A DNA stretch of 64,000 nt from Escherichia coli (GCF_044324785.1 NZ_CP172127.1), one strand, 5' to 3'. Shown: positions 3,725-61,631, counted from the first letter of the stretch. The notes: a model not told the origin generated them from the sequence alone. Program-made: numbers and translations.

Positions 3725-3830
3725 ATGTGTTCTTCGGTAGCGATTACGGTAGTGAACGGACCTGCTGTCTGAATGGCATCGATCCGCAAGCGTATCGGCG
3801 CCATATTCTGAGCGTACTACTGAAATGGCT
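3725..3830 (+). pseudogene. IS66-family transposase C-terminal remnant
   Basis: Translation FFGSDYGSER..CCLNGIDPQAYRRHILSVLLKW matches the C-terminus of the IS66 transposase at 57024-57383 (FFGSDHGGERGALLYGLIGTCRLNGIDPEAYLRHILSVLPEW) with a frame disruption; approximate bounds. Confidence 0.5.
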
Positions 3831-3957
3831 AATGGCAGTAAAGAGAGACTTTACGTATATTTGCATAAAGCAGGATTTTACGACTAGTCAACATTCTTTA
3901 TAATTCTTCAGGTTCAGAGTATCTGACATATAGGGTTATGTATTGGGGAGACATTTA

Positions 3958-4659
3958 ATGTTTGGCCATCTGTTACGATACTTTAGTTTCTGTAAAAAAG
4001 ATTTATTAGTATTTCATCCTGAATCTGATTACTCAGATAATTTACATAAAGCCTTCTCTTTTACAAAAAGGCTAGGATTTAATGAAGAATGGAATGGGGT
4101 CACAAAAAACAAAGAATATGATTATCAGGATGTATTCAGTCATGTCTGTCTGCAGTCTGGTGTGACAGACTTTTCCGCTTCAGCAGGACAATGCTTAAAG
4201 TGGAGTCATTATTTTCAGCCATATTTTGAGAATATCCTTGAATGTCGGGTATGGGTTACCGTTGGACAACTCTGGAAACAGGAACGATTTATTTACAATC
4301 CGTCAGTTGCGGATTTTCAGCGCTGGTCTGAAAAAGGGATTCAGCCTGAAGATTTTAGACATCACTCGGGGTTTAACTTTCATGCGTGGTTGACGACGGA
4401 AAATGGTGTGATTGTGGATGTTTCCTTTATGAGTACGTTATCGCGGCGATTACCTGAACACCTGAGTGAAGTCAGTGGAAGTGTGATTATTGGCACGCCA
4501 GAGACGGTTCTTCCTGAGTATAAATATGTTCCCATGATTGTCGGTCAGAGGATTGTTGAGAAAATAGAAAAACGCTCTTTCATTGGTTTTCTGGCGCACG
4601 ACGATATTGATTTATATACAGTACCTGCAATCTTGGTTCCGGTATGGAAAGAATGTTAA
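3958..4659 (+). CDS. Hypothetical protein, no recognisable family; orphan cargo gene
   Basis: ORF 3943-4659; likely ATG at 3958 preceded by GGGGAG; AT-rich upstream region; flanked by IS66 and IS21 remnants. Confidence 0.5.
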   Translation: MFGHLLRYFSFCKKDLLVFHPESDYSDNLHKAFSFTKRLGFNEEWNGVTKNKEYDYQDVFSHVCLQSGVTDFSASAGQCLKWSHYFQPYFENILECRVWVTVGQLWKQERFIYNPSVADFQRWSEKGIQPEDFRHHSGFNFHAWLTTENGVIVDVSFMSTLSRRLPEHLSEVSGSVIIGTPETVLPEYKYVPMIVGQRIVEKIEKRSFIGFLAHDDIDLYTVPAILVPVWKEC

Positions 4660-4978
4660 AGCACGGAATAACACTATGCACTTACCGCTTTCCGGAACTC
4701 AGCTTGTTACCTGAGCGGTCAACAGAGCAGTCTTTCAGTGTCTGCACTTGGTTGCCACTAAACCGGAGTCATTTATCAGAAGTATATGTTCATGGAAGGA
4801 TATTGTCAGCGCCAGTGATATAAGACGGTAATGAGGATAGCCACCCCGCATGGGTTTCCTCAACACTGGTCACTGTGACAAGCGCACCATGATCGTCTTT
4901 GTATCGCTGATTGACTTTCGATAATAGAACATCTTCTGACATAAATTTTAGTACGGTAACAATTAACTAAATTTTCAT

Positions 4979-5245
4979 GTGGTAGCACTGAATCAGGAGA
5001 CTGCGTTTCCTGATGTGTGCTTCTGCAGCCGTTACCGGATACAGACTTCGATACCAGTTACTTCGACATCCGCCATGTGTCCTGGGACCCGCTATAACGA
5101 AGTTGGAGGTAATCAGTACAGCGTTCCCGAAATGCTGTGTGGTCAGCCAGTCTCGATACGAATATCGCTGAACGATGAGTTGCGGATCTACAGTAATGAG
5201 AAACTGGTGGCCTCACATCGCCTCTGCTCAGTGTCGTCTGGCTAG
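4979..5245 (+). pseudogene. Possible IS21-family IstA C-terminal fragment
   Basis: Segment YSVPEMLCGQPVSIRISLNDELRIYSNEKLVASHRL resembles IstA C-terminal region; weak, by eye. Confidence 0.3.
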
Positions 5246-5389
5246 CAGATAGTACCGGAACCTCACGCCCCGCTCTGGCAGCAGATCAGTCAGGTGGAAC
5301 ATCGACCACTGAGTGCCTATGAGGAGCTGTTGTGATGCATGTGTCAACGACGGATGAAAGTGGCTCTTCCGCAACCTGGGTGGAGATTT

Positions 5390-6816
5390 TCATGCCAGTG
5401 GACTCATTACCCTCTGCCTGAGTAGTTCAAATCCTGCTCGACCATACATCTGGCGTTTCAGCATCTTCAGGCGATTTACATGACCTTCGACAACACCATT
5501 ACTCCAGTGACTACTGATTGCCTCACATATAGCTGCAGCATCAGCTTCCATCCCCGCCGCCACGCGCCGAAATTCTGCTGAACCGCTTTCGTGGACTCGA
5601 GTGAACCAACTGCTTAGCTGTGATTTATTTTGGGTTTTCAGAATACGGTAGAACTCGAGTGCCAGTTGCTGCGCTATTTTCAGCTCAGGTTCTTTTTCAC
5701 ACATCAGACTAATAAATCGGGAAGCATAATTTTCTTCATCCCTGGTTATTCTCCAGGGCATCAACCAGCGGCTTACCCGGGACACTGAAGGAAGTCTGAC
5801 GGCAGTAGTAACCGGTGGGTTCCAGCCTTTACGCCATTTGGCAACCGCATCCCTGACGATGGTTTCACTGCCTGTAAATCCCCGGGCCACCATTTCCCGC
5901 CATATCCGGCTGGCGTTATAATTACCACTTTCTCGTTGCTCTTTTAACCACTCCCTCCATGGGTCCAGAAGCCCTCGCTTTGGCGGTCGGGTTGACATTT
6001 CAGGGAATGTTCCTGAACGCACCCAGCGACTGACTGTCACACGCGACAGGCCTGTAATACGGGATATTTCCCTGAAACTACATCCCTTGTTATGCAGGGC
6101 CATAACCTCTGTCCAACGCTGATGCCGTTTTTTGCGGGTTTGTTGTTTTAGGCGTTCCGGACGACGGAGCGATGCTGCAGGCACAGATGGTTCTGGATCA
6201 GGTGATTTCTTTGGTGACAACTCACTGGCAACAAGACGTATCAGAGGTATATGTCTATACATCATTCGTTCAGGCGCATCGCCAATATTTTTTAGCAGAT
6301 GCCATCGATCGGCCACCTGTCTGGCCTGAGGTGCACCTTCACGTGCTGCTGTCGCATAGACTCCACTGCGATCACGCGAGACAATCTGTATTTCCGGATA
6401 TTTTCTGAACCAGGTCGCCAGCGTACGCTGATCACGGCCGGGAAGCAGGACGAGGGGACGGTGAGTATCAAGATTGACGATTAACGTACCGTAACGGTGG
6501 CCCCGATGCCACGCCCACTCATCAATACCGACATGAGGCGAGCCTGACTGTTTCGTCTCCGGGGTATTGATAACCCTGCGAAGGAGAGTATCAGCACTGC
6601 AACGGAGACCCACTGCCGTTGCTGCCCGTTTCCCGGCCTCACCTCCGGCGATTAATCCCAGTTGACGTTGTAAATTTTGTAACGCCTGTGAAGACTGTTG
6701 GTGTGAACCGGCGAAGGGAGCAAGCGACTCGGCAAAAATTTTACGTGAACAAGCCGGGTTACGGCAGTACCAGTGGCGGACAGAAAATACAAGCCATAGC
6801 GTATGTCCTGAGCAGG
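5390..6816 (-). pseudogene. ISL3-family transposase, N-terminus interrupted by IS2
   Basis: C-terminal SNGVVEGHVNRLKMLKRQMYGRAGFELLRQRV signature; RHWYCRNPAC zinc knuckle and VGIDEWAWHRGHRYGTLIV DDE region; first 13 codons of track ORF 5390-6853 are encoded by the IS2 right end. Confidence 0.6.
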
Positions 6817-6827
6817 TGGATTTGCCC

Positions 6828-7733
6828 CTATATTTCCAGACACCTGTTATCACTTAACCCATTACTGGCCTGCTGCCGCAGATATTCCCGTGGCGAGCGA
6901 TAACCCAGTGCACTATGCGGATGCCATTCGTTATAATGCTCGAACGCCTCTGCAAGGTTCTTTGCTGCCGTTAACCCGTCTGGTTTAGGCATGATACTGA
7001 TGTAGTCACGCTTTATCGTTTTCACGAAGCTCTCTGCTATGCCGTTACTCTCCGGACTCCGCACCGCCGTGTTCTTCGGTTCAAGCCCCAACATCCGGGC
7101 AAACTGCCGTGTTTCATTAGCCCGGTAGCATGAACCATTATCCGTCAGCCACTCTACTGGAGACGCCGGAAGCTCGTTGCCGAAGCGGCGTTCCACCGCT
7201 CCTGGCATGACGTCCTGTACTGTTTCACTGTCGAAGCCGCCCGTAGTGACTGCCCAGTGCAGTGCCTCACGGTCACAGCAGTCCAGCGCGAACGTGACTC
7301 GCAGTTTTTCTCCGTTATCACAGCGGAACTCGAACCCGTCAGAGCACCATCGTTGATTGCTTTCTTTCACGGCCACTTTGCCAGTATGTGCCCGTTTCGA
7401 TGGCGGTACAGCGGTTTTTCGCTCAAGCAACAGCGCATTCTGGCGCATGATCCGGTAAACACGTTTGGCATTGATCGCAGGCATACCATCAAGTTCGGCC
7501 TGTCTGCGAAGCAGCGCCCATACCCGACGATAACCATACGTGGGCAGCTCTCCGATAACATGGTGTATACGGAGAAGCACATCCGTATCATCTGAGTGAC
7601 GGCTGCGGCGACCATCTTTCCAGTCATCGGTTCGTCTGAGAATTACGTGCAACTGCGCACGCGACACCCGGAGACAACGGCTGACTAAGCTTACTCCCCA
7701 TCCCCGGGCAATAAGGGCGCGTGCGCTATCCAC
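6828..7733 (-). CDS. insD: IS2 transposase OrfB (InsD)
   Basis: 301-aa ORF with rve-type DDE integrase core; recognised as IS2 InsD from memory. Confidence 0.9.
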
Positions 7734-8056
7734 TTTTTTGCACGCCCGTATTCAACGGCTTCTTTAAGGAGTTCATTTTCCATCGTTTTTTTGCCGAGCA
7801 GGCGCTGGAGTTCTTTAATCTGCTTCATGGCAGCAGCAAGTTCAGAGGCAGGAACGACCTGCTCTCCTGCGGCCACAGCAGTAAGACTTCCCTCCTGGTA
7901 TTGCTTGCGCCAGAGAAATAACTGGCTGGCTGCCACACCGTGTTGCCGGGCAACAAGGGAGACCGTCATTCCCGGTTCAAAACTCTGCTGAACAATAGCG
8001 ATCTTTTCCTGTGTAGTACGCCGTCTGCGTTTCTCCGGTCCTAAGACATCAATCAT
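7691..8056 (-). CDS. insC: IS2 OrfA (InsC)
   Basis: Starts [27 protein letters not shown] protein overlapping orfB as in IS2. Confidence 0.85.
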
Positions 8057-8613
8057 CTGCTCTCCAATGACTAGTCTAAAAACTAGTATTAAGACTATCA
8101 CTTATTTAAGTGATATTGGTTGTCTGGAGATTCATGGGGCCAGTCTAATGTGTATCCGGGATGGATGTTTACCAGAACCTTCTCTGTTCCAGTGTGTGGA
8201 GTTTTACAGAAGAGGCGACTGTATGCAACTCTTGCCCCGTAACTGTCTTTATTCGTTTCTCCACACTCTCCGGACATTGTAAATTCCAGATGTGTGGCAG
8301 TGTGTTTTTCGTAAATCGTACACAATGCATTTTTACACGGAGTTCAGCCAGTCGTATCACTGAGAGTTTTTTTCTGATTTGTACCACTCATGCAGCAGTG
8401 ATAAGGAGATATTTTCTCTGTCGGGCCAGCAGGGGCGGTGCCACCTGTTTAGTTTTCTTATGTTTGGTAAAAGAGAGGCTAAAATATATACAACAGGCGT
8501 ATGTAATGATTCATATTGTTAATCATTAACCAGTAAGAATTAATGTAGTGGATCGGTAATTCAGGACACCTCGAAATCCTGTTAATGTTAAAACAGTGAA
8601 AATGGGGTGATGC

Positions 8614-8931
8614 ATGAGCAAAACTCGTCGGACTAAACGCACCTTTTCCCCGGAGTTCAGGCTCGAAGCTATCGAGCAAGTAGTTAAATACCAGCGCGAT
8701 GTCAGAGAAGTCGCGCTGGCACTTGAGCTCAATCCTGACCATTTGCGTAAATGGATACGGTTGTATAAGCTGGAACTTCAGGGTATTGAGCCCGCTGGTA
8801 ATGCCATACCCCTGAACAGCGAGAAATTCAGCAGCTTAAAAGCGCAGATAAAGCGCCTTGAGATGGAAAAAGAAATACTAAAGCAGGCTGCCGTGCTGAT
8901 GAGCGAAATCCCCGGCAAGCTGTCGCGCTAA
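8614..8931 (+). CDS. IS3-family transposase OrfA (HTH plus leucine zipper), element truncated downstream
   Basis: 105-aa ORF MSKTRRTKRTFSPEFRLEAIEQV...LEMEKEILKQAAVLM; only the first codons of an orfB follow before the adjoining IS-like copy at about 9062. Confidence 0.65.
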   Translation: MSKTRRTKRTFSPEFRLEAIEQVVKYQRDVREVALALELNPDHLRKWIRLYKLELQGIEPAGNAIPLNSEKFSSLKAQIKRLEMEKEILKQAAVLMSEIPGKLSR

Positions 8932-9061
8932 TCACACTGCTGAAAGCAAAGCGGCCAGTGCGGATTATTTGTCATTTATTCGGTGTTCACCGTAGCGTTT
9001 ATTACGCGCAGGTGAAGCGTCCTGTTAATGTATCAGCGCCAATGATATAAGACAGTAATTA

Positions 9062-10688
9062 GGATTCGGACGATTTCCTGGACTGCTTTATTATGCCAGC
9101 CCGCATTGTTGGCGGTACATTTCAGGGATGACTGCACCCAGCGAAAATTTTATACGCCGCTCGTTATACCATCTGATGTAAGCATCCACATGCCGCATGA
9201 ATTTTTCAGGCGTGATACCCAATCATTTACGCCCATAATATATTTCAGTTTTCAGTCTGCCGAAAAAGCCTTCGCATGCAGCATTATCAGGCGAGCATCC
9301 TTTACGGGACATTGAGCGAATAAGGCCTGCTGTATTCACTCTTTCCAGCCAGGCCAGCGATAATGCCCACCTCTGTCACTGTGTATCACCGGTCGTTCGC
9401 CAGCATTTAACGTTTCGACAGCGTTATCCAGCATAGTGTTGACCAGTTCAGCATCGGGGCGTGTACTGAGAGACCAGCTCACAACTTTTCTGTCGAAGCA
9501 GTCCACCACCGGTGATAGCCAGACTTTTCCTGCAGGAAGCTGGAACTCCGTGATATCTGTCAGCCATTTCTGATTAGGTTGCTCCGCCTTAAAATCTCTG
9601 GCGATAAGGTTATCCGGAGAAGGTCCGATTTCTCCGCAATATGAGCTGTAGCGGCGATGACGGTTACGGCTGACGACAAGCTGTTCCTCCACCATAAGTC
9701 TGCGTACAACCTTTTCTGATAGCCGATCCCCCTCATGCCTGAGCATCGCATGCAGGCGACGATAGCCATAACACTGGTAATTACTGTTAAATATATCTGT
9801 CAGCATCGTACGTATCGTGGCGTATTTATCACTGGCTTTCAGTGCAGCCCGGTGATAAAAATAACTGCTACGGGCAAGGCCCAGAACATGCAGTAATTCT
9901 GTCAGGGGATATGTTTATCTCAGGGCATCAGTAATCTTTGTTTTTTCTCTGTTGTTCAGGTGACTGATGCTGATGCCCGGGTCTTTTTTTATTATTTCCT
10001 CCGCTTTTTTCAGAATATCCAGTTCCATCTGCCGGCGGCGTATTTCCTGATTCAGTCGGGCGACTTCCTCCCGCAACGCATCGCGTTCTGCCTCCAGGGA
10101 AGGGGCGTTATGTTTACGCATAGTCTGGTAAGCACTGTTGCCGATAATTTCATCTTTCCATTTATACAATACCGCGCGACTGACACCAATACGCCTGGCG
10201 ATTTCACTGGCTGATCCTTGTCGTGTACAGAGTACCATGACAGCCTGACGTTTGACTTCTGGTTCAAAGGACGCAACCGGATTGGTCTTACTGGTAAATA
10301 CACGTCGTCTGTCGGGGGAACGTTCATTAACCCAGCGAGCGAGCATATCGGTACAGGGATAACCCAGAGTCCTGCTGGTAAACGCCAGGCAGCAGCCGTG
10401 GTTAAGATAATGTTCAACGGCAACCTGTTTTTGCTCATCGGAGTAACGGTGCTTATGACGAATGGATTCTTTTGATCCGCCACCTGCTTCCCATGAACGG
10501 ATCCAACGCCGCAGATTTCTTTTCGAAGGGTAGCCCAGTTCGCGTACGACGGGGCCAGCTTCTTACCATATTTGAAATAAAGCTCAATGGTGCGAATTTT
10601 TTGTTCTTCAGTAAACATGTTTCATCTCCTGAGAGTCCAGGAAATCGTCCGCATCCCCTAACGGTCAAAAATCGTGGCGTTGATACAG
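9062..10688 (-). mobile_element. DDE (rve) IS-like element, copy 1, decayed; about 50-bp terminal inverted repeats
   Basis: Left end TGTATCAACGCCACGATTTTTGACCG (reverse complement at 10688); right IR lacks about 35 terminal bp; transposase carries a 1-bp frameshift after MFTEEQKIRTIELYFKYGKKLA, a TAA where copy 2 has CAA (Gln), and further shifts near the 3' end. Confidence 0.65.
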
Positions 10689-10868: not shown

Positions 10869-12131
10869 CTATTTTAATGGATTGTTAATCTTTGCATATT
10901 CAAACGGGCTGATACATTGTTCTCTGTTCGCACCCAGAAAATCTGCCCACCACTGTAGCATCAGTCGACGTTCTTCCAGATGTTCTGCTTTATGGATATA
11001 TGCAGCACGTACACCATTACGCTCCTGATGGCTCATCTGACGTTCCACAGCATCGCGGGACCACAAACCTGATTCAATCAATGCACTGCACGCCATCGCC
11101 CGGAATCCATGACCACAGACTTCCTGGGTTGTGTCATATCCCATCACCCTCAGGGCTTTATTTACAGTATTTTCACTGATCGGTTTACGCGGGTCATGTG
11201 CTCCCGTAAAGATCAGACCATTTTCACCAGCCCATGTCTGTAGTTCTGTCAGTATGGCTACAGCCTGTTTGCTGAGTGGCACAAGATGTGGTGTTCGCAT
11301 CTTGGAGCCCCGGTGTGAGTATTTTACGCCTGGCAGAGGTTCGCGTTCGGCTGGAATAGTCCACATGGCATTGTCAATATCAATTTCAGACCAGCGGGAA
11401 TATCTGAGTTCACTGGAACGAATAAAAACCAGTAAATTCAGCATAACTGCCAGTCGGGTGACAGGCTGACCTTTATAACCGTCAATACGCGACAGAAGTT
11501 CAGGCAGGCGTGAAAGATCCAGAGCAGGGCGATGCTGGCGTTTTACCGTGGTCAATGCACCAGCCATATCCAGAGCCGGGTTATATCTGATGATGCCAGA
11601 CTGTACGGCATAACGCATTACAGCAGATATTCTTTGCTGCAGACGACTGGCGATTTCATAAATTTGTTTTGCTTCTGCAGCACGAACAGGGATAAGCAGG
11701 TCCGGGGTATTGAGTGTTGTGATATCCCGGTTGCCGATAAAGGGGAAAACGTGTGTCTCGAGGCTTTTGATTACTTTATCGCTGTGTGATTGTGCCCATT
11801 GTTTATTACTGGCATGCCAGCGTCGTGCAATATGTTCAAAAGAGAGTTGTAAATCAGGGACTACTTTTTTAGCTCTTTTTTGTTCGCAAGGGTCAATCCC
11901 CTCTGAAATCAGTTTTCGGGCCTCATCCCGTTTTGTACGAGCTTCGGAGAGAGAAACTTCTGGATATACACCAAGTGCCAGAGTCTTCTCCTTACCCAGA
12001 ATACGATAACGGAGACGCCAGTAACGGGAACCATTAGGATGAACCAGCAGGAACATGCCAGCCCCGTCAGTGAGTTTATAAGCCTTGTCAGTGTGCTTTG
12101 CAGCCCGGATTTTTGCGTCAGTCAGTGCCAT
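10869..12131 (-). CDS. P4-type tyrosine integrase (CP4-like island integrase)
   Basis: 420-aa ORF; N-terminal LTDAKIRAAK..GMFLLVHPNGSRYWRLRYR arm-binding domain and C-terminal catalytic region (HGFRAM...RAAY). Confidence 0.9.
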   Translation of the reverse strand: MALTDAKIRAAKHTDKAYKLTDGAGMFLLVHPNGSRYWRLRYRILGKEKTLALGVYPEVSLSEARTKRDEARKLISEGIDPCEQKRAKKVVPDLQLSFEHIARRWHASNKQWAQSHSDKVIKSLETHVFPFIGNRDITTLNTPDLLIPVRAAEAKQIYEIASRLQQRISAVMRYAVQSGIIRYNPALDMAGALTTVKRQHRPALDLSRLPELLSRIDGYKGQPVTRLAVMLNLLVFIRSSELRYSRWSEIDIDNAMWTIPAEREPLPGVKYSHRGSKMRTPHLVPLSKQAVAILTELQTWAGENGLIFTGAHDPRKPISENTVNKALRVMGYDTTQEVCGHGFRAMACSALIESGLWSRDAVERQMSHQERNGVRAAYIHKAEHLEERRLMLQWWADFLGANREQCISPFEYAKINNPLK

Positions 12132-12295
12132 AGTTCAGCCTTCTGAATGCGTTAAAGAGGGTACAAATTCTGTCGAACTGGGGTATACCCGCAATTATAC
12201 CCACACAATGGGGTTGATGTGGGGGGAATCTGGTTGAGTTCGGTAGAATTGATTTGGAGGCAGAACGCTTAAATTGTGGCGTTCTGAAACGAAAA

Positions 12296-12317
12296 ACGGA
12301 CCTCCGTGGAGGTCCGT
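12296..12317 (-). terminator. Rho-independent terminator hairpin downstream of the tRNA-Phe 3'-end copy
   Basis: Perfect palindrome ACGGACCTCCGTGGAGGTCCGT followed on the minus strand by TTTTCGTTTC. Confidence 0.5.
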
Positions 12318-12328
12318 TGATATGAATT

Positions 12329-12347
12329 TGGTGCCCGGACTCGGAAT
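12329..12347 (-). repeat. Copy of tRNA-Phe 3' end (att core) without tRNA body
   Basis: Minus-strand ATTCCGAGTCCGGGCACCA equals the last 19 nt of E. coli tRNA-Phe; upstream sequence does not match the tRNA body. Confidence 0.65.
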
Positions 12348-12594
12348 GAAACTGGTTGTATAACAAGTTGTTTTATATTGATTGTTTTGTGTTTGTTATT
12401 TTTGAGGCCACCAATGAGGCCCCCATGTGCAATTCGAATTCTTTTGACGCTATAATCCCTCTTTCTTGTGGTTTGTTGTAATCATTTTGTCTGGTTCGAT
12501 ATGCTGAATCGCGGAATCGAAGTGACAACAAAATACAGAGATTTATAAAATACCTGGCTACCTGTGTTAGGGAGCGTTAACGCACAGATTTTGT

Positions 12595-12921
12595 TTATGG
12601 CTGCCAGAAATGATCTGATGGTTTGTCGTCTGGCTCTGCAAGTACCCTGTTGATATCCCGGGAACCATGAACGATACGTTCGATACGAACTTCAGTATCC
12701 AGTACCCTGAACAGCAGAAGGTAACGACCATACGAACAACCTCTGATCCCAGCCCCTAACTCGGGTCTTTCTCTGTAGAGTACTGGCGATTCGGCTATCA
12801 ACAGACATTGTTGGTAAAGCTCTTCGGTAAAACTGATTGCACGGACAGGATTATCCTGAGCGATCCAGTCACCTATAGCTTCAAGATCGTGTTCTGCTAA
12901 TGGTGAAACAGTCAGTTTCAT
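12595..12921 (-). CDS. parE: ParE-family type II toxin
   Basis: 108-aa ORF; ParE/RelE-like sequence; overlaps upstream antitoxin by ATGA. Confidence 0.75.
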   Translation of the reverse strand: MKLTVSPLAEHDLEAIGDWIAQDNPVRAISFTEELYQQCLLIAESPVLYRERPELGAGIRGCSYGRYLLLFRVLDTEVRIERIVHGSRDINRVLAEPDDKPSDHFWQP

Positions 12922-28331: not shown

Positions 28332-28930
28332 AACAATTTTGTGAGTAGAAAACGAAAATCATAATCCTTCGAATGAAGGTTGATGATAAGGTGTGTTGCA
28401 TATCCTGCACCTGTGCAAATATTCACCAATTATTGGGTGTGAATGAAAATTTCTCTGAAAAAATCGCTATGGTAGCAACAGTAGCAGCACATACACTACA
28501 TCTGTGATTTGGTTTTGTTTTCATAATGACCTGCTGTCAGAGCTGATTGAATGCTGGGATGTGCGCACTGGTGGAAGAGTGGTTTTCGTTTCAGATATAA
28601 CGAAAGGCAATCGAAAGATTGTTTTAAACATGGATTAAAGCTAATCATTAACCATATTGTGTGAGTTTTTATATATAAGTTTGTTTGATTCTTGCCGTGA
28701 TGAGTGCTGGGGTATATGACGATGTCGCTCTCTTTCTGAATAACAAATTATTATTCGTCTGTTACTGATAAGGGATGCGATTCATGTTTTAATAGATGGT
28801 TGAAGAAAATTAATTTGATATTTTTTTTGTAAGGGAATGGAACTGTCCGGAATATGTTCAGAACGGCGGATTTCTCATTTCCATTCATTAAACATGGATA
28901 ATTTTAATTTAGGTTTATTACTATTATTAT

Positions 28931-29047
28931 ACTCACTCCCTTTTTGATATAATCTCTATTGTTATTTACTTCCTGTCTTTACTCACTCCCTTTTTCATAC
29001 AATCTCTATTGTTATTTACTTCCTGTCTTTACTCACTCTCTATCTTT
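28931..29047. repeat. Tandem 50-bp direct repeat: two copies plus a partial third
   Basis: 28931-28980 and 28981-29030 differ at 2 positions; partial third copy ACTCACTCTCTATCTTT. Confidence 0.7.
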
Positions 29048-55624: not shown

Positions 55625-56038
55625 TAATACTATTCCTGCCCTGTAATTTACGGGCAGGGTATATCAACCGGAAATAGCCTACTGACATCCATGTATAAAG
55701 CCACATAATTATTTTGTTGATGTATCTTACCTAATACGTAAGCGTAAAGCCAATGCCGTCTGTAACTCCTGATCCTTGCAGACTAAATGTAAGCGCTCCT
55801 TCTGTGCCGTCTTGTGGTGGTTGTCCTGTCTGGCAACAATCGCGTCCATCTATTGATGGACACGAATGATGAATTCTCAGACAACAAAAGATATCACCGG
55901 CTTTCGCTCTTATTTTCCAGATGTATTGCGACTAATATTCGAAGAGCAATTATCTGTTCGGGCTATCGCACTGGAGCAGTTAGGCCTCAGTCATTCCACC
56001 GTTCATAATATCTTTCAACGGTTTAATGCCTCTGGCAT

Positions 56039-56111
56039 GTAAGCGTAAACCGACCGTTGTATTGACGCTTATTTATAGGGGAGAACTACGTTCCATGGCA
56101 GGAGTTCGTCA
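56039..56111 (-). repeat. Isolated 73-bp IS66-family terminal fragment
   Basis: GTAAGCGTAAACCGACCGTTGTATTGACGCTTATTTATAGGGGAGAACTACGTTCCATGGCAGGAGTTCGTCA, near-identical to the end of the IS66 copy at 56994. Confidence 0.55.
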
Positions 56112-56928: not shown

Positions 56929-57023
56929 ATCTCTTTATCCTGGTTGTCACAGAATAAGCCCGGTAAAATACGGGCTTATGAACGACATCTCTTGTAAGCG
57001 TCAACGGAGCACCGTATTGACGC

Positions 57024-58616
57024 TTATTTATTGGTGAGTACTACGTTCCATGGCAGGAGTTCGTCAACACAGTTGGAGGGCCATTCCGGCAGTACGCTCA
57101 GAATATGGCGCAGATACGCTTCCGGATCGATACCGTTCAGACGGCAGGTGCCGATCAGCCCGTACAGCAGTGCTCCACGCTCGCCGCCGTGATCGCTACC
57201 GAAGAACACGTAATTTTTCTTTCCGAGACAGACTGCACGAAGCGCTCTTTCCGCTGTGTTATTGTCCGCTTCTGCCAAACCATCATCACTGTAATAACAG
57301 AGGGCGTCCCACTGATTCAGTACATAGCTGAACGCTTCGCCCAGTCTGGATTTTTTCGACAGCGTGCCATTCTTCTCCACCATCCATTCATGCAGCGACG
57401 TCAGTAACGCTTTGCTTCGCTGCTGCCTGGCTGCAAGACGCTCTGACTCTGGTAATCCCCGTATTTCATCCTCGATGGCGTACAGTTCACTGATTCACTT
57501 CAGGGCTTCTTCTGCCGTCGCACTTTTGCTGCTGATGTATACATCGTGGATTTTTCGCCGGGCATGGGCCCAGCACGCAACTTCTGTCAGTGCACCACCT
57601 TCACGTTCTGCACTGAACAACCTGTCGTAACCTGTGAACGCATCCGCCTGCAGGATACCCCGGAAGGGGCGAAGGTGTTGCTCCGGGTGTTTCCCCTGCC
57701 GGTTCGGCGAGTACGCGAACCAGACCGCTGGAGGAGATGACGAACCCACATTGCGATCATCCCGGACATACGTCCAGATACGCCCTGTTTTCGCCTTTTT
57801 CTGACCCGGTGCCAGTACCTTTACCGGTGTGTCATCAGTGTGAACCTTGCGGGTGTTCATTACATAACGGTACAGGGCATCATTCACCGGTGTCATTAAC
57901 TGGCAGCACGCGTCAACCCAGTTGGAGAGTAAGGCCCGGCTCAGTTCGACACCCTGGCGGGCAAAGATTTCACTCTGACGATACAGTGGCAGATGTTCGC
58001 AGTATTTTCCCGTTAACACGCGGGCAAGTAATCCGGGGCCCGCGATACCACGCTCTATCGGGCGGGACGGCGCCGGTGCTTCAACAATACAGTCACATTT
58101 TGTACAGGCTTTTTTTACCCGTTCTGTGCGGATCACTTTCAGGGCACTGCTCACCAGTTCCAGCTGTTCAGCGCTGACTTCCCCCAGATAATCCAGCTCA
58201 CCGCCACACTCCGGGCAACAGCTTTCTTCTGGCTCCAGGCGGTGTATTTCACGGGGAAGGTGTGCCGGTAACGGACGACGATGGCGCGACTGTCGCAACT
58301 GGCGGGGAACCTGAGGATCGTCTTCCCGCCCACTGTAACGATCGCTGTCCTGTTCACGTTGTTTCAGCAGAGCCTCAGCCAGTTCAACTTCACGACGCAG
58401 TTTTTCAGAACGGGTACCGAACAGCATCCGGTGCAGTTTTTCTATCTGAGCCCGCAGATGTTCTATTTCCCGTTCATCTTCTTCGATCTTTTCTTCGGCA
58501 CGTGCCAGTGCAGAGCGCAGGAAGGCCTCCGTCTCTTCAACCAGACTCAGTTGCTGGTCTTTCTGACGGAGCTGGCTTTCCAGTTCTGCAATGCGAATGA
58601 GGTATTTCTGACTCAT
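57024..58616 (-). pseudogene. IS66-family transposase (OrfC) with in-frame TGA nonsense codon
   Basis: Track ORFs 57495-58616 and 57024-57383 share one frame; TGA at 57495-57497; reading through gives ...TAEEALK*ISELYAIEDEIRGL... Confidence 0.75.
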
Positions 58617-58646
58617 GGCCGTTTTTATAATGCGGCCAGGCGTTTT

Positions 58647-58997
58647 TTACAACATTGTCAGTGCGTTAAGGCGGAATGTTTTTGGCTGACGCCAGTCCAG
58701 CTTATCGAGGAGCATTGCCAGTTGCGAGCGGGTAATGGATACCTTGCCGTCACGTACCGCAGGCCAGATAAACTGGCCTTCCTCCAGGCGTTTGGTGAAC
58801 AGGCACAGACCATCAGCATCAGCCCAAAGAATTTTGACGGTGTCACCCCGTCGGCCACGGAAGATAAACAGGTGACCGGAGAAGGGATTATCATTCAGCA
58901 CATGTTGTACCTGTTCTCCCAGTCCGTTGAAGGATTTACGCATATCGGTAACGCCGGCAACGAGCCAGATACGGGTACCTGATGGGAGTGAGATCAT
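58647..58997 (-). CDS. IS66-family OrfB
   Basis: 116-aa ORF; LPSGTRIWLVAGVTDMRKSFNGLG. Confidence 0.8.
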   Translation of the reverse strand: MISLPSGTRIWLVAGVTDMRKSFNGLGEQVQHVLNDNPFSGHLFIFRGRRGDTVKILWADADGLCLFTKRLEEGQFIWPAVRDGKVSITRSQLAMLLDKLDWRQPKTFRLNALTML

Positions 58998-59419
58998 CTT
59001 CCCCTCCCGGTCAGTTCACGGATCAACACTGTGAGCAGCTCTGGCGATGGATTTTCCAGCGTCATGTTACCGTGACGGAATTCCACCTTGCAGGAACTGG
59101 CACTGACTCTGGTCTGAGTGGAAGTGGATAAAGACGGCGCAATGGCCGCCACAGGTTCTTTCTGCTCATCCGGCGTTATTTCTACAGGTAATAATTCAAC
59201 GCCAGTGTCAGAAGAGGTCGTTACCGGAAGACGCCGCGAAACACGCCCTTCGTTCTGCCAGAGCCTGAGCCATTTGAAAATAACATTATCATTGACGCCA
59301 TTTTCACGTGCAATCTGTGCAACACAAGCTCCAGGTTGTGATGCCAGTTCCACCATACGAAGTTTGAATTCATTCGAATAGTTTTTACGAGGTTCTTTTC
59401 GCCAGTCCTGTAATTCCAT
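58994..59419 (-). CDS. IS66-family OrfA
   Basis: 141-aa ORF; ASQPGACVAQIARENGVNDNVIFKWLRLWQ. Confidence 0.75.
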   Translation of the reverse strand: MELQDWRKEPRKNYSNEFKLRMVELASQPGACVAQIARENGVNDNVIFKWLRLWQNEGRVSRRLPVTTSSDTGVELLPVEITPDEQKEPVAAIAPSLSTSTQTRVSASSCKVEFRHGNMTLENPSPELLTVLIRELTGRGR

Positions 59420-59504: not shown

Positions 59505-60797
59505 CTTTATCCCGACAGACGACGTATATTTACCAGTAAGGCCAACCCGGTTGCGCCCTTTGAACCAGAAGTCAAACGTCAGGCTGTCATGGCACTCTGT
59601 ACACGACAAGTATCAGCCAGTGAAATCGCCAGGCGTATTGGTGTCAGTCGTGCGGTATTGTATAAATGGAAAGATAAAATTATCGGCAACAGTGCTTACC
59701 AGACTATGCGTAAACATAACGAACCTTCCCTGGAGGCAGAACGCGATGCGTTGCGGGAGGAAGTCGCCCGACTGAATCAGGAAATACGCCGCCGGCAGAT
59801 GGAGCTGGATATTCTGAAAAAGGCGGAGGAAATCATAAAAAAAGACCCGGGCATCAGTATCAGTCACCTGAACAACAGAGAGAAAACGAAGATCGCTGAT
59901 GCCCTGAGACAAACATATCCCCTGACAGAATTACTGCATGTTCTGGGCCTTGCCCGTAGCAGTTATTTTTATCACCGGGCTGCACTGAAAGCCGGTGATA
60001 AATACGCCACGATACGTACGATGCTGACAGATATATTTAACAGTAATTACCAGTGTTATGGCTATCGTCGCCTGCATGCGATGCTCAGGCATGAGGGGGG
60101 GCGGCTATCAGAAAAGGTTGTACGCAGACTTATGGTGGAAGAACAGCTTGTCGTCAGCCGTAACCGTCGTCGCCGCTACAGCTCATATTGCGGAGAAATC
60201 GGACCGGCTCCGGATAACCTTATCGCCAGAGATTTTAAGGCGGAGCAACCTAATCAGAAATGGCTGACAGATATCACGGAGTTCCACCTCCCTGCAGGTA
60301 AAGTCTGGCTATCATCGGTGGTGGACTGCTTCGATGGAAAAGTTGTGAGCTGGTCTCTCAGTACACGCCCCGATGCTGAACTGGTCAACACTATGCTGGA
60401 TAGCGCTGTCGAAACGTTAAATGCTGGCGAACGACCGGTGATACACAGTGACAGAGGTGGGCATTATCGCTGGTCAGGCTGGCTGGAAAGAGTGAATGCA
60501 GAAGGTCTTATTCGCTCAATGTCCCGCAAAGGATGTTCACCTGATAATGCGGCATGCGAAGGCTTTTTCGGCAGACTGAAAACGGAAATGTATCATGGGC
60601 GTAAATGGTCGGGCATCACGCCAGAAAAGTTCATGCAGCAAGTGGATACTTACATCAGATGGTATAACGAGCGGCGTATAAAATTATCGCCGGGTGCAGT
60701 CAGCCCCAAAATGTACCGCCAACAATGCGGGCTGGAATGATAAAGCAGTCCAGGAAATCGTCCGCATCCCCAGAACGGTCAAACATCGTGGCGTTGA
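59505..60797 (+). mobile_element. DDE (rve) IS-like element, copy 2, 5'-truncated by the IS66 insertion
   Basis: Begins mid-gene directly after the IS66 end at 59504; right inverted repeat ends ...CGTGGCGTTGACA at 60797. Confidence 0.65.
59589..60740 (+). pseudogene. Single-ORF HTH plus rve (DDE) transposase, N-terminally truncated
   Basis: 383-aa ORF; HTH SASEIARRIGVSRAVLYKWK, coiled coil, DDE core ...WLTDITEF..HSDRGGHYRW..; lacks the MFTEEQK N-terminal region seen in copy 1. Confidence 0.6.
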
Positions 60798-61631
60798 CAA
60801 CGGGTTCCTGAGTCCGGTGAAGCGCCGGTTACTGGAAAATGTTGTGTACGTCATAACAGAAACGGAGAGAAAAACGGCGATGCAAATCAGGCGGAGAAGG
60901 GTGTATCAGCGGTTACTGAAGGTTGACCCGCTGAAGTGCATCCTGTGCGGAGGTCAGATGCGGTTTACGGGGCTGAAGCGGGGCTACCGTCTGGCAGAGC
61001 TGGTCATGATGCATGAGCCACTGGCACGACAGCGGGTATACAGCTGAGAGCCGCAGAGGGGAAGTTGCGTCCATTTTTTGAGGAATGGAGCAAAAAATCA
61101 TCACAGATATAAAAAATCAATCAATGAAAGCCATTTAATTGCCGGTGCATTGTGGATGCAGTCCTCATGGTACGTAACCAGAGTTGAATAAACATCCATT
61201 TTTTTGTGTTTTTTTAACCTCCCCGGGTTTTTAATTCCTGTCGATTAAAAGTGTTAGATTATTTGGTTAAGAGTTCTCTCGTCCTATTTATTCAGGCGTT
61301 ATCACGGATATGCAGATCGCTAAGTCAGTTGTAAGAAAACCAGACAGTGCACATCATTATACCTAGGTCTTCTCTGGAAAAATACTTAGGAATAATTTAT
61401 GTAAAACAGGTTGTCGTCTTCATGATTTAAACGCAGTACATATATATACTCTATAATAAATACAGGGAGTATCACGAGACGTCTGGATAAGAGGAATAAC
61501 CAGAATAAATTGGTAAGGAATAAAGACACTTATTTCTATTGAGAAAAAACATTCATCCTGATGTGATTAGTATCAATGAAATAATGTGCTTGTATGGTTG
61601 ATAAAAAATGCATCACTAAAGAAAAAACAGT

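Follow-up and report, generated by a model that had tools for sequence, protein, structure and literature searches.

Insertion sequences of the IS21 family generate target duplications in the range of 4-8 bp. Their ends are about 55 bp long, carry two direct repeats each and a terminal CA, and IstA requires both repeats of each end in vitro (PMC10122671). In an intact element the outermost tip would be the terminal repeat where IstA is expected to bind and cleave, by analogy with IS5376. The two elements closest to the present locus, named IS21 and ISEc62 here after their PGAP labels, encode the istA transposase and the istB AAA+ helper; their reference copies show terminal TG..CA, long two-repeat ends, 4-bp duplications and abutted tandem copies. 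Other IS are known to target the terminal repeats of transposons, as IS4321/IS5075 do with Tn21-type inverted repeats, and IS1397 and ISKpn1, of the IS150 group, target REP/BIME units, which are short palindromic repeats.

We analysed a 64,000-nt stretch of Escherichia coli DNA (the window) holding two copies of a short segment identical to the left tips of these IS21-group elements. In contrast to the reference copies, only the outer 29 nt or so remain in the window, with neither a subterminal repeat nor contiguous istA/istB. With a probability of roughly 0.88, we regard the segment as the outer half, from the terminal TG onwards, of the left terminal inverted repeat (about 55 bp) carried by IS21-group elements, and its two copies as dead relics of two different elements. 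They are ordinary IS debris in an E. coli genomic island. Features are collected in Table 1.

Table 1. Features of the IS-rich stretch and of the second IS150-group copy (positions in the window)
Feature	Position	Strand	Basis
IS21-type left terminal inverted repeat, outer ~29 nt, solo relic (TGTCAGCGCCAGTGATATAAGACGGTAAT) (copy 1)	4804-4832	+	tip identity, alignment
Junction patch GAGGAT, IS tip/DUF4222 gene	4833-4838	.	crossover within AT/ATG..GGAT microhomology (alignment)
Truncated DUF4222 gene and upstream region	4839-5021	-	PGAP pseudogene in 99.9% identical locus L001
IS21-type istA C-terminal fragment, frameshift and internal stop	5019-5341	+	PGAP 'Mu transposase domain' pseudogene
Truncated ISEc38 (ISL3 family) transposase gene	5390-6814	-	PGAP of 99.9% identical locus; ORF
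IS2 copy (IS3 family, IS2 group) with inverted repeats	6825-8138	-	repeat pair, ORFs, PGAP
Unrelated IS3-family element, truncated (left end, orfA and start of orfB)	8541-9028	+	Pfam HTH_Tnp_1; PGAP pseudogene
ISEc62-type left-end tip (TG-TA-TCAGCGCCAATGATATAAGACAGTAAT), outer end of 1659-bp unit (copy 2)	9029-9059	+	identity, alignment, motif scan
Degenerate IS150-group IS3-family element	9060-10658	-	inverted repeats, Pfam, PGAP frameshift and internal stop
Inner 25-bp inverted repeats of the IS150-group element	9060-9084 and 10634-10658		96% complementary
Pieces of the IS150-group element	orfA 10052-10618; orfB 9091-9806		
IS21-type right-end tip, outside-in TG-TA-TCAACGCCACGATTTTTGACCGTTA, other outer end of unit	10659-10687	-	motif scan, alignment
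Second IS150-group copy, 5' end truncated by IS66-family unit	59511-60771	+	self-BLAST, ORFs, Pfam
IS21-type right-end tip capping the second copy (TGTCAACGCCACGATGTTTGACCGTTCT)	60772-60799	-	

A short segment occurs twice in the window

The window has two occurrences of the segment and no more, one at 4806-4838 (copy 1) and one at 9033-9065 (copy 2), both on the + strand; a repeat search of the window gave 33 nt, identical at 30 of 33 positions (91%). The preliminary description was thus right about a real repeat in two copies, while its length of 32 bp and its placing of the second copy at 9036-9067 needed correction. It had further located both copies at boundaries between IS-derived fragments. 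This applies to copy 2, which lies between the truncated IS3-family fragment and the IS unit to its right, but only loosely to copy 1, flanked by island DNA on the left and the DUF4222 fragment on the right, with the IS21 IstA fragment 187 nt downstream. The general idea was right in kind: the segment derives from an IS, lies at rearrangement junctions amid an IS graveyard and is no product of chance.

Shared descent does not coincide with the 33-mer. It starts 2 nt further left, at a terminal TG (4804 TGTCAGCGCC in copy 1; 9029 TG-TA-TCAGCGCC, with a 2-bp insertion, in copy 2), and ends at about 4832 and 9059 (...GTAAT). The last 5-6 nt (GAGGAT and TAGGAT) have a separate origin in each copy: by alignment, GAGGAT derives from the DUF4222 gene, where strains B1_2 and KTa008 read GCGGAT, and TAGGAT is the start, now degenerate, of the inverted repeat of the inner IS3-family element, canonically GGGGATG. 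Local BLAST of the two contexts revealed no similarity outside the shared segment.

The segment matches the tip of IS21-group elements

The left tip of the E. coli B36 copies (L023) labelled 'IS21-like element IS21 family' was matched by 4804-4832 at 29/29 nt, and the ISEc62 tip at 27/29; 9033-9060 matched positions 3-30 of the reconstructed ISEc62 at 28/28. The two elements are 86% identical overall. The tip, reading TGTCAGCGCCA.., is the end of IS21-group elements and is not located in IS3-family coding sequence. It is contiguous with istA/istB in L012, L014 and L023, and in L014 and L023/L025 its bearers are free of any IS3 insertion. Similarly, ISEc62 in plasmid NZ_LR882974.1 reads TGTCAGCGCCAATGATATAAGACAGTAAT, then TCACCATTTGGATTGTCCGCTCC, then istA/istB, and the ends of tandem ISEc62 copies abut as TTGACA-AA-TGTCAG, again without IS3 insert. 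The IS21-type copies of B36 have the G,G tip, a right end ..CGTGGCGTTGACA and the 4-bp target duplication GACG; 4-bp duplications in IS21-type reference loci comprise GACG, GCCT and ATAT. In Pfam searches IstA showed HTH and rve domains plus a C-terminal domain of Mu-transposase type, and IstB hit IstB_IS21 at 294 bits.

Both window tips show the terminal 5'-TG / 3'-CA (4804 TGTCAG; 9029 TGTATCAG). On the other hand, a motif scan allowing up to 5 errors detected no L2/R2-type subterminal motif throughout the window, istB is absent from it, and no intact istA/istB adjoins either tip. With the subterminal motif missing, both copies would be relics and not functional ends, and the family assignment therefore rests on the 28-29 nt identity together with the context in other genomes. 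The promoter expected at IS21 tandem junctions was not called in our promoter scan, since its rule demands a T as the sixth base of the -10 hexamer and the hexamer of the tip is TATAAG.

Copy 2 belongs to a nested unit

The unit at 9029-10687 consists, in order, of an ISEc62-type left tip, an IS150-group IS3-family element and an IS21-type right tip (compare the B36 IS21-type right end, ..AACGGTCAAACATCGTGGCGTTGACA). It thus mixes tip types, and the same unexplained 2-bp TA insertion is present in both tips. We observed no target duplication around it (flanks TTAA / GGGG), and a 56-nt inverted match joins 9029-9084 to 10634-10687.

The inner element carries Pfam rve, HTH_21 and HTH_Tnp_1 domains. 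In an intact relative, the OrfB part shares 44% identity with IS150 InsK as against 26% with IS2 (InsD), and HTH and rve domains, the orfA/orfB frameshift organisation and 3-bp duplications are common to the IS150 group and this element; however, its OrfA part barely resembles InsJ and the window copy is a pseudogene. Most alignments with its relatives stop at window position 9062, where the tip begins, and the second copy of the window is 95% identical to 9062-10316. PGAP, cluster names and plasmid annotations give just 'IS3 family transposase' for it, and a full-text literature search with its end sequences returned unrelated primers only.

In reference loci, perfect inverted repeats of 25 bp delimit the inner element, which lies between 3-bp duplications within IS21-group ends (AAA in the ISEc62 right end; AAT at L026, in the left end of an IS21-type element). 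The duplications recorded were AAT, AAA and ATA, and the ends inferred from the junctions are GGGGATG..CATCCCC, not TG..CA. Its position, 27-29 nt away from the tip, is homologous in the left and the right ends of two IS21-group species, and both orientations occur. The predicted junction of IS3 element with subterminal repeat is present in 34 records from 31 genomes. Units of the 1659-bp type would begin with insertion of the IS3-family element 27-29 nt inside an IS21-group end, the istA/istB interior being lost afterwards by recombination or deletion.

Of the alternatives, the best surviving, though still improbable, assigns the 33-mer to the outer part of a long inverted repeat (about 53 bp) of the 1.66-kb IS150-group element itself, from which the 52-bp elements described below and the IS21 tips would derive. 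Indeed, at four sites the tips of 1.66-kb units have 4-bp duplications on their outer side, CACG (L007), CTAT (L002), ACTC (L012) and TATC (L055/L098), and in a metagenome sample the IS150-group element occurs most often in this form. But IS21-type elements likewise show 4-bp duplications, complete istA/istB elements end in exactly these tips without IS3 insert, the inner element creates its own 3-bp duplications inside the ends, whichever side and orientation it takes, and the IS3 body can have tip type A or B at either flank. An inverted repeat of 53 bp for the IS3-family element, deduced from the 56-nt inverted match and the outside duplications, was accordingly dropped, as NZ_LR882974.1 and L014 bear the same tips on istA/istB elements without IS3 insert. 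Also rejected was a reading of the outer 30 bp as halves of an IS1397-like palindromic host target: the 'palindrome' is made of two IS21 tips.

Copy 1 is a solo end joined to a DUF4222 gene

Copy 1 comprises a single end, with no paired flank for a target duplication, and can be compared to solo IS ends and to miniature, MITE-like deletion derivatives of IS. At the junction site KTa008, with an intact DUF4222 gene, reads CAGGGATGCGGATAGCC, and B1_2 shares the copy-1 junction (GTAATGCGGATAACC). In the window the C-terminal coding part of the DUF4222 gene is missing, and an 11-bp deletion is seen relative to B1_2 and KTa008. Homology to the DUF4222 segment, beginning at about 4852, was present in 1416 genomes. 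We sought an empty site for the 4804 insertion, and the left flank (4400-4803) was found in only 61 genomes, all with the junction. An IS21-type element would have lost everything beyond position 29/30, its stump becoming joined to the 3' part of the DUF4222 gene within the microhomology. Copy 1 may stem from a plain IS21 or from a nested tip plus IS3 unit, as both predict GTAAT followed by G.

The istA fragment at 5019-5341 is 80% identical in nucleotides to ISEc62 959-1280 and about 92% identical to istA of the element labelled 'IS21-like element IS21 family'. Its orientation is that of the tip at 4804. Shared orientation and type suggested a single element made of tip and fragment, but this is doubtful: B1_2 and KTa008 show that the DUF4222 stretch separating the two is native on its right side, and the same fragment was found at another locus with more sequence on its left.

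Each copy is a left end, and both point the same way, 4.2 kb apart in a heavily rearranged region where an IS21-type istA fragment separates the two. One could therefore imagine a single IS21-group insertion in the island, later duplicated or split, with the three mismatches arising by subsequent mutation. We judge this very unlikely. Two of the three mismatches fall at the positions that separate IS21-type (G,G) from ISEc62-type (A,A) tips in every reference examined, so that the copies come from two different elements and not from one scattered IS. Furthermore, the TA insertion of copy 2 is missing from copy 1, and the copy-1 junction recurs in B1_2, whose island is arranged differently.

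Less probable again is the original proposal that both copies are edges of one IS3-family orfB, broken and scattered by recombination. IS3-family fragments are many in the region, and copy 2 sits 26 nt past the stop of an IS3-family orfB-type ORF. Yet the segment is non-coding, lying outside this nearest ORF (stop at 9091-9093) and outside the inverted repeat 9060-9084, and the identical stretch of 28-29 nt makes up the left tip in IS21-family istA/istB elements without IS3 insertion; nor would scattering of one element give the same end twice, in one orientation and with diagnostic bases of two tip types. Finally, chance similarity of two AT-rich stretches, named at the outset as what would overturn the proposal, can be dismissed: zero matches to the 33-nt pattern were expected and none occurred in 100 dinucleotide-preserving shuffles, local BLAST of the pair within the window gave E = 7e-6, and each copy matches at 100% an IS tip present in thousands of genomes.

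Distribution of tips, nested units and short derivatives

A tip-containing 35-mer was present in 3508 of 5426 E. coli genomes and the IS3-family body in 1577, showing that the tip exists independently of that IS. In the metagenome sample, 110 of 148 ends of the IS150-group element lay in an IS21-end context and about a quarter elsewhere. Metagenome contigs provided only about 10 distinct complete 1.66-kb units, most without target duplications, so that the unit as such is no more than a candidate mobile element. We also observed 52-bp elements, left tip plus right tip without interior, at several E. coli loci: one (L015) has a perfect 4-bp duplication, CAAA, and four (L009, L010, L016, L017) no clear duplication. 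A motif scan found none in the window. That IstA depends in vitro on both repeats of an end (PMC10122671) speaks against autonomous movement of these elements.

The homologous insertion position and the 110 metagenome ends suggest that the IS150-group element targets IS21 ends. Like IS4321/IS5075 and IS1397/ISKpn1, the inner element recurs within repeats, here at a homologous position in terminal ones; the difference lies in its target, an IS21-family end, and in a specificity deduced from occurrence. More tentatively, it might be a site-specific 'parasite' of IS21-group IS, entering either end between the terminal and subterminal IstA-binding repeats. Recombination between inserts could then delete istA/istB and leave the widespread 1.66-kb unit, perhaps moved in trans by IstA/IstB or a dead end, and the 4804 tip, which stops exactly at the IS150-group insertion site, would be the footprint of a lost insert. 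Our literature search yielded no description of an IS150-group element parasitising IS21-group ends; ISfinder may record one. If true, such targeting would provide a further example of one IS family aiming at and disabling the ends of another, and would explain why the tip is far commoner than either intact partner in E. coli genomes and plasmids.

Layered insertions in the island

For the window itself the gain is one of annotation only: relics of IS21-group ends account for two stubs of 29 nt that had no annotation and for both ends of the pseudogene listed as 'frameshifted IS3 transposase', and the island from 4.8 to 10.7 kb becomes readable as layered IS insertions and deletions. A short repeat beside an IS3-family gene may belong to another IS, and an apparent long inverted repeat can be a nested end pair from two families. 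Among the neighbouring elements, PGAP describes 6825-8138 as an IS3-family transposase with programmed frameshift, and the element at 8541-9028 is homologous to intact IS3-family copies from 8541-8544 up to 9028, being cut where the 9029 unit begins.

A 33-nt repeat derived from the tips of IS21-group elements

The degenerate pattern reported in the preliminary description had exactly two matches in the 64-kb window, 4806-4838 (copy 1) and 9033-9065 (copy 2), both on the + strand, and none was expected by chance (100 shuffles). A repeat search of the window gave a 33-nt direct repeat with 91% identity and copies 4227 nt apart. Sensitive local BLAST aligned the two copies with E = 7e-6 and showed no similarity of their contexts past the segment. 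The repeat is therefore real and lies at two places as first described, although it measures 33 rather than 32 nt and the initial coordinates of copy 2 were off by three.

Sequence comparison identifies the 33-mer as what is left of the ends of known elements, namely IS21-type insertion sequences and ISEc62. On plasmid NZ_LR882974.1 the tip TGTCAGCGCCAATGATATAAGACAGTAAT is continuous with TCACCATTTGGATTGTCCGCTCC and then with istA/istB of an element labelled ISEc62 by PGAP, a name in use in plasmid papers; its right end, ..GGCGAAAAACGGCCAATAATCTTGGCGTTGACA, matches the other tip. Plasmid NZ_CP068153.1 carries two tandem ISEc62 copies without IS3 insert and with abutted ends (TTGACA-AA-TGTCAG). 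Copies annotated 'IS21-like element IS21 family' in E. coli B36 have the left tip TGTCAGCGCCAGTGATATAAGACGGTAAT and the right end ..AACGGTCAAACATCGTGGCGTTGACA and are bounded by the 4-bp duplication GACG. IstA and IstB contain the hallmark domains of the IS21 family, and the IS21-type and ISEc62 elements are 86% identical overall. Window 4804-4832 is identical to the IS21-type tip (29/29) and 9033-9060 to the ISEc62 tip (28/28).

IS21-family ends span ~55 bp, with two direct repeats and a terminal CA (PMC10122671), and of these two repeats the 33-mer therefore represents the outer one, at the left end. The proposed scattering of a single IS3-family orfB did not hold: the same tips bound istA/istB elements without IS3 insert, the segment is an end repeat rather than part of orfB, and the copies differ at three sites, two of which are precisely the G/A positions which separate IS21-type from ISEc62-type tips in every reference examined, against a single origin. 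The view of IS debris at rearrangement junctions was correct.

No subterminal repeat motif was found anywhere in the window, so both copies are relics. IstA activity in vitro needs both repeats, a single one being insufficient (PMC10122671), and the 33-mer relics have no evident present function. With 29 nt, they are presumably too short to matter in homologous recombination. The only residual signal of the relic is a minus-strand promoter-like match (4781-4809) using the tip's terminal CTGACA as -35, with a TATACT -10 in the flank and a 17-nt spacer. It is directed away from the tip and antisense to ORF 3943-4659.

An IS150-group element nested in IS21-group ends

Window 9029-9084 is inverted-complementary to 10634-10687 and IS3-family OrfA/OrfB domains are encoded between them (the OrfB part of an intact relative is 44% identical to IS150 InsK vs 26% to IS2). 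Intact copies (loci L002 and L007) are 1660 bp long, with 4-bp duplications outside the same tips; a 510-aa fused transposase is encoded by that of L007 (2567-4099). On these grounds the first model was a long inverted repeat of IS3-family type with the 33-mer as its outer stretch. This model was rejected: the majority of the element's relatives align no further than window 9062, the 35-mer is present in 3508 of 5426 genomes vs 1577 for the IS3-family body, and tip types switch sides of the IS3 body among copies.

In the reference loci, the IS150-group element occupies a homologous site of left or right IS21-group ends, 27-29 nt in from the tip. It lies in both IS21-type and ISEc62-type ends, in either orientation, with 3-bp duplications (AAT, AAA, ATA). 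The ISEc62 right end reads GGCGAAAA, IS, AAAACGGCC, vs uninterrupted GGCGAAAAACGGCC, a 3-bp duplication; the IS21-type left end (locus L026) reads GGTAAT, IS, AATTCGCC, with AAT duplicated. IS21-type right ends are also occupied (L019, L026). A synthetic junction predicted from the nesting model gave single-alignment matches in 34 records from 31 genomes.

We also examined 120 metagenome loci retrieved by the inner inverted repeat alone. IS21-group end sequence abutted the element at that position in 110 of 148 ends; of the other 38, 28 came from one recurrent locus and several more were truncated tips. Together with the homologous 27-29-nt position and the 3-bp duplications, this suggests that the IS150-group element may be target-specific for IS21 ends. 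The order left tip-orfA side...orfB side-right tip was ~4x commoner than the flipped order seen at 9029-10687. The 1.66-kb unit may move as such: 4-bp duplications surround it at four sites, but the complete units of the metagenome sample mostly lacked them. Such duplications would equally persist after full-length insertion followed by internal deletion. For mobile-DNA specialists, the nesting is a modest curiosity.

Contexts of the two copies

Copy 2 is the outer end of the 1659-bp unit 9029-10687, which is mixed, with an ISEc62-type left tip and an IS21-type right tip. Both tips carry the same 2-bp TA insertion (TG-TA-TCA, 9029-9035 and 10681-10687), which none of the reference tips showed. 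The left neighbour is a truncated unrelated IS3-family element (8541-9028), and no target duplication surrounds the unit.

For copy 1, alignment with KTa008 (intact DUF4222, CAGGGATGCGGATAGCC) and B1_2 (a strain with the same junction, GTAATGCGGATAACC) showed that the IS-derived part stops at ..GTAAT (4832), where DUF4222 sequence begins; the window reads GTAATGAGGATAGCC, with an 11-bp deletion further along. The crossover is therefore placed in a short microhomology of a few bases. In copy 1, the terminal AGGAT of the 33-mer is thus not IS sequence. The DUF4222 partner site CAGGGATGCGGATAGCC (KTa008, locus L006; window 4833-4851) and the IS150-group element end GGGGATGCGGACG have 10 nt in common, GGGATGCGGA, and the relic ends exactly where this element inserts into IS21 ends. 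These two features hint that the junction may have arisen by loss of an IS150-group insert rather than by random deletion. An IS21-type istA C-terminal fragment (5019-5341; ~92% identical to IS21-type, 80% to ISEc62) follows 187 nt downstream of the tip and is oriented like it; the B1_2/KTa008 comparison gave no evidence joining the two into one element.

Genomic setting and other IS21-group ends

The region matches E. coli chromosomes at 99.9%, and annotation was taken from PGAP on the near-identical (99.9%) locus of strain TUM9803 (window = locus + 1299). The 4.8-10.7 kb region is an IS graveyard adjoining a P4-type integrase (10869-12131).

Features of the IS graveyard, nested IS150-group loci and 52-bp-type elements (window coordinates unless a locus is named)
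Feature	Position	Strand	Remark
DUF4222 pseudogene	4853-4942	-	PGAP, TUM9803 locus
'Mu transposase domain' pseudogene	5023-5335	+	PGAP, TUM9803 locus
Truncated ISEc38	5390-6814		PGAP, TUM9803 locus
IS2	6825-8138		PGAP, TUM9803 locus
Truncated transposase	8615-9033		PGAP, TUM9803 locus
Phosphoethanolamine-transferase fragment			Within graveyard; PGAP, TUM9803 locus
ISEc62-type left tip	9029-9059		
Degenerate IS150-group element	9060-10658		Own 25-bp inverted repeats at 9060-9084 and 10634-10658
Frameshifted IS3-family transposase	9092-10619	-	PGAP, TUM9803 locus
IS21-type right tip	10659-10687		
Second IS150-group copy	59511-60771		95% identical; capped by IS21-type right tip 60772-60799
Nested loci	9060-10658, 59511-60771; L012 41631-45362; L026 1393-5100; L019		
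52-bp-type elements	L009 2001-2051; L010 2001-2053; L015 1501-1552; L016; L017		

Beside the integrase, TUM9803 has a 78-nt tRNA-Ser (L001 11031-11108), called by PGAP and absent from ARAGORN calls. The window retains only its last ~19 nt (~12331-12349) and diverges thereafter; ARAGORN found no tRNA in the whole window, nor was there an Rfam match in 12100-12700. Such a remnant would fit a partial attachment-site repeat, as might be left by tandem islands, for instance. Self-BLAST of the window further revealed a 59-bp tandem duplication (97%, 28930-29038), a perfect 28-bp palindrome (42894-42921), a diverged IS2-like copy (51793-52651, 71-77% identical to IS2 at 6881-7895), dispersed repeats of 74-78 bp (87%; 56038-56111, 56993-57157 and 3753-3829) and an IS66-family unit (57495-59419) truncating the second IS150-group copy.

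Elsewhere, E. coli chromosomes carry 52-bp miniature elements made of the IS21-group left and right tips only. The L015 copy is flanked by CAAA, a perfect 4-bp duplication. Among 5426 E. coli genomes, 1772 gave a one-place match to the 52-nt query at a coverage of 80% or more. In a tandem ISEc62 (L014 1501-1556), ends abut as TTGACA-AA-TGTCAG and TTGACA stands 17 nt upstream of TATAAG, a pair to be compared with the promoter described at the IS21 tandem junction (PMC10122671). The tandem IS21-type pair of B36 (L023 3300-3330) has a first copy without its last ~60 nt, and in L007 (2475-2522) the right tip has a 24-bp tandem duplication.
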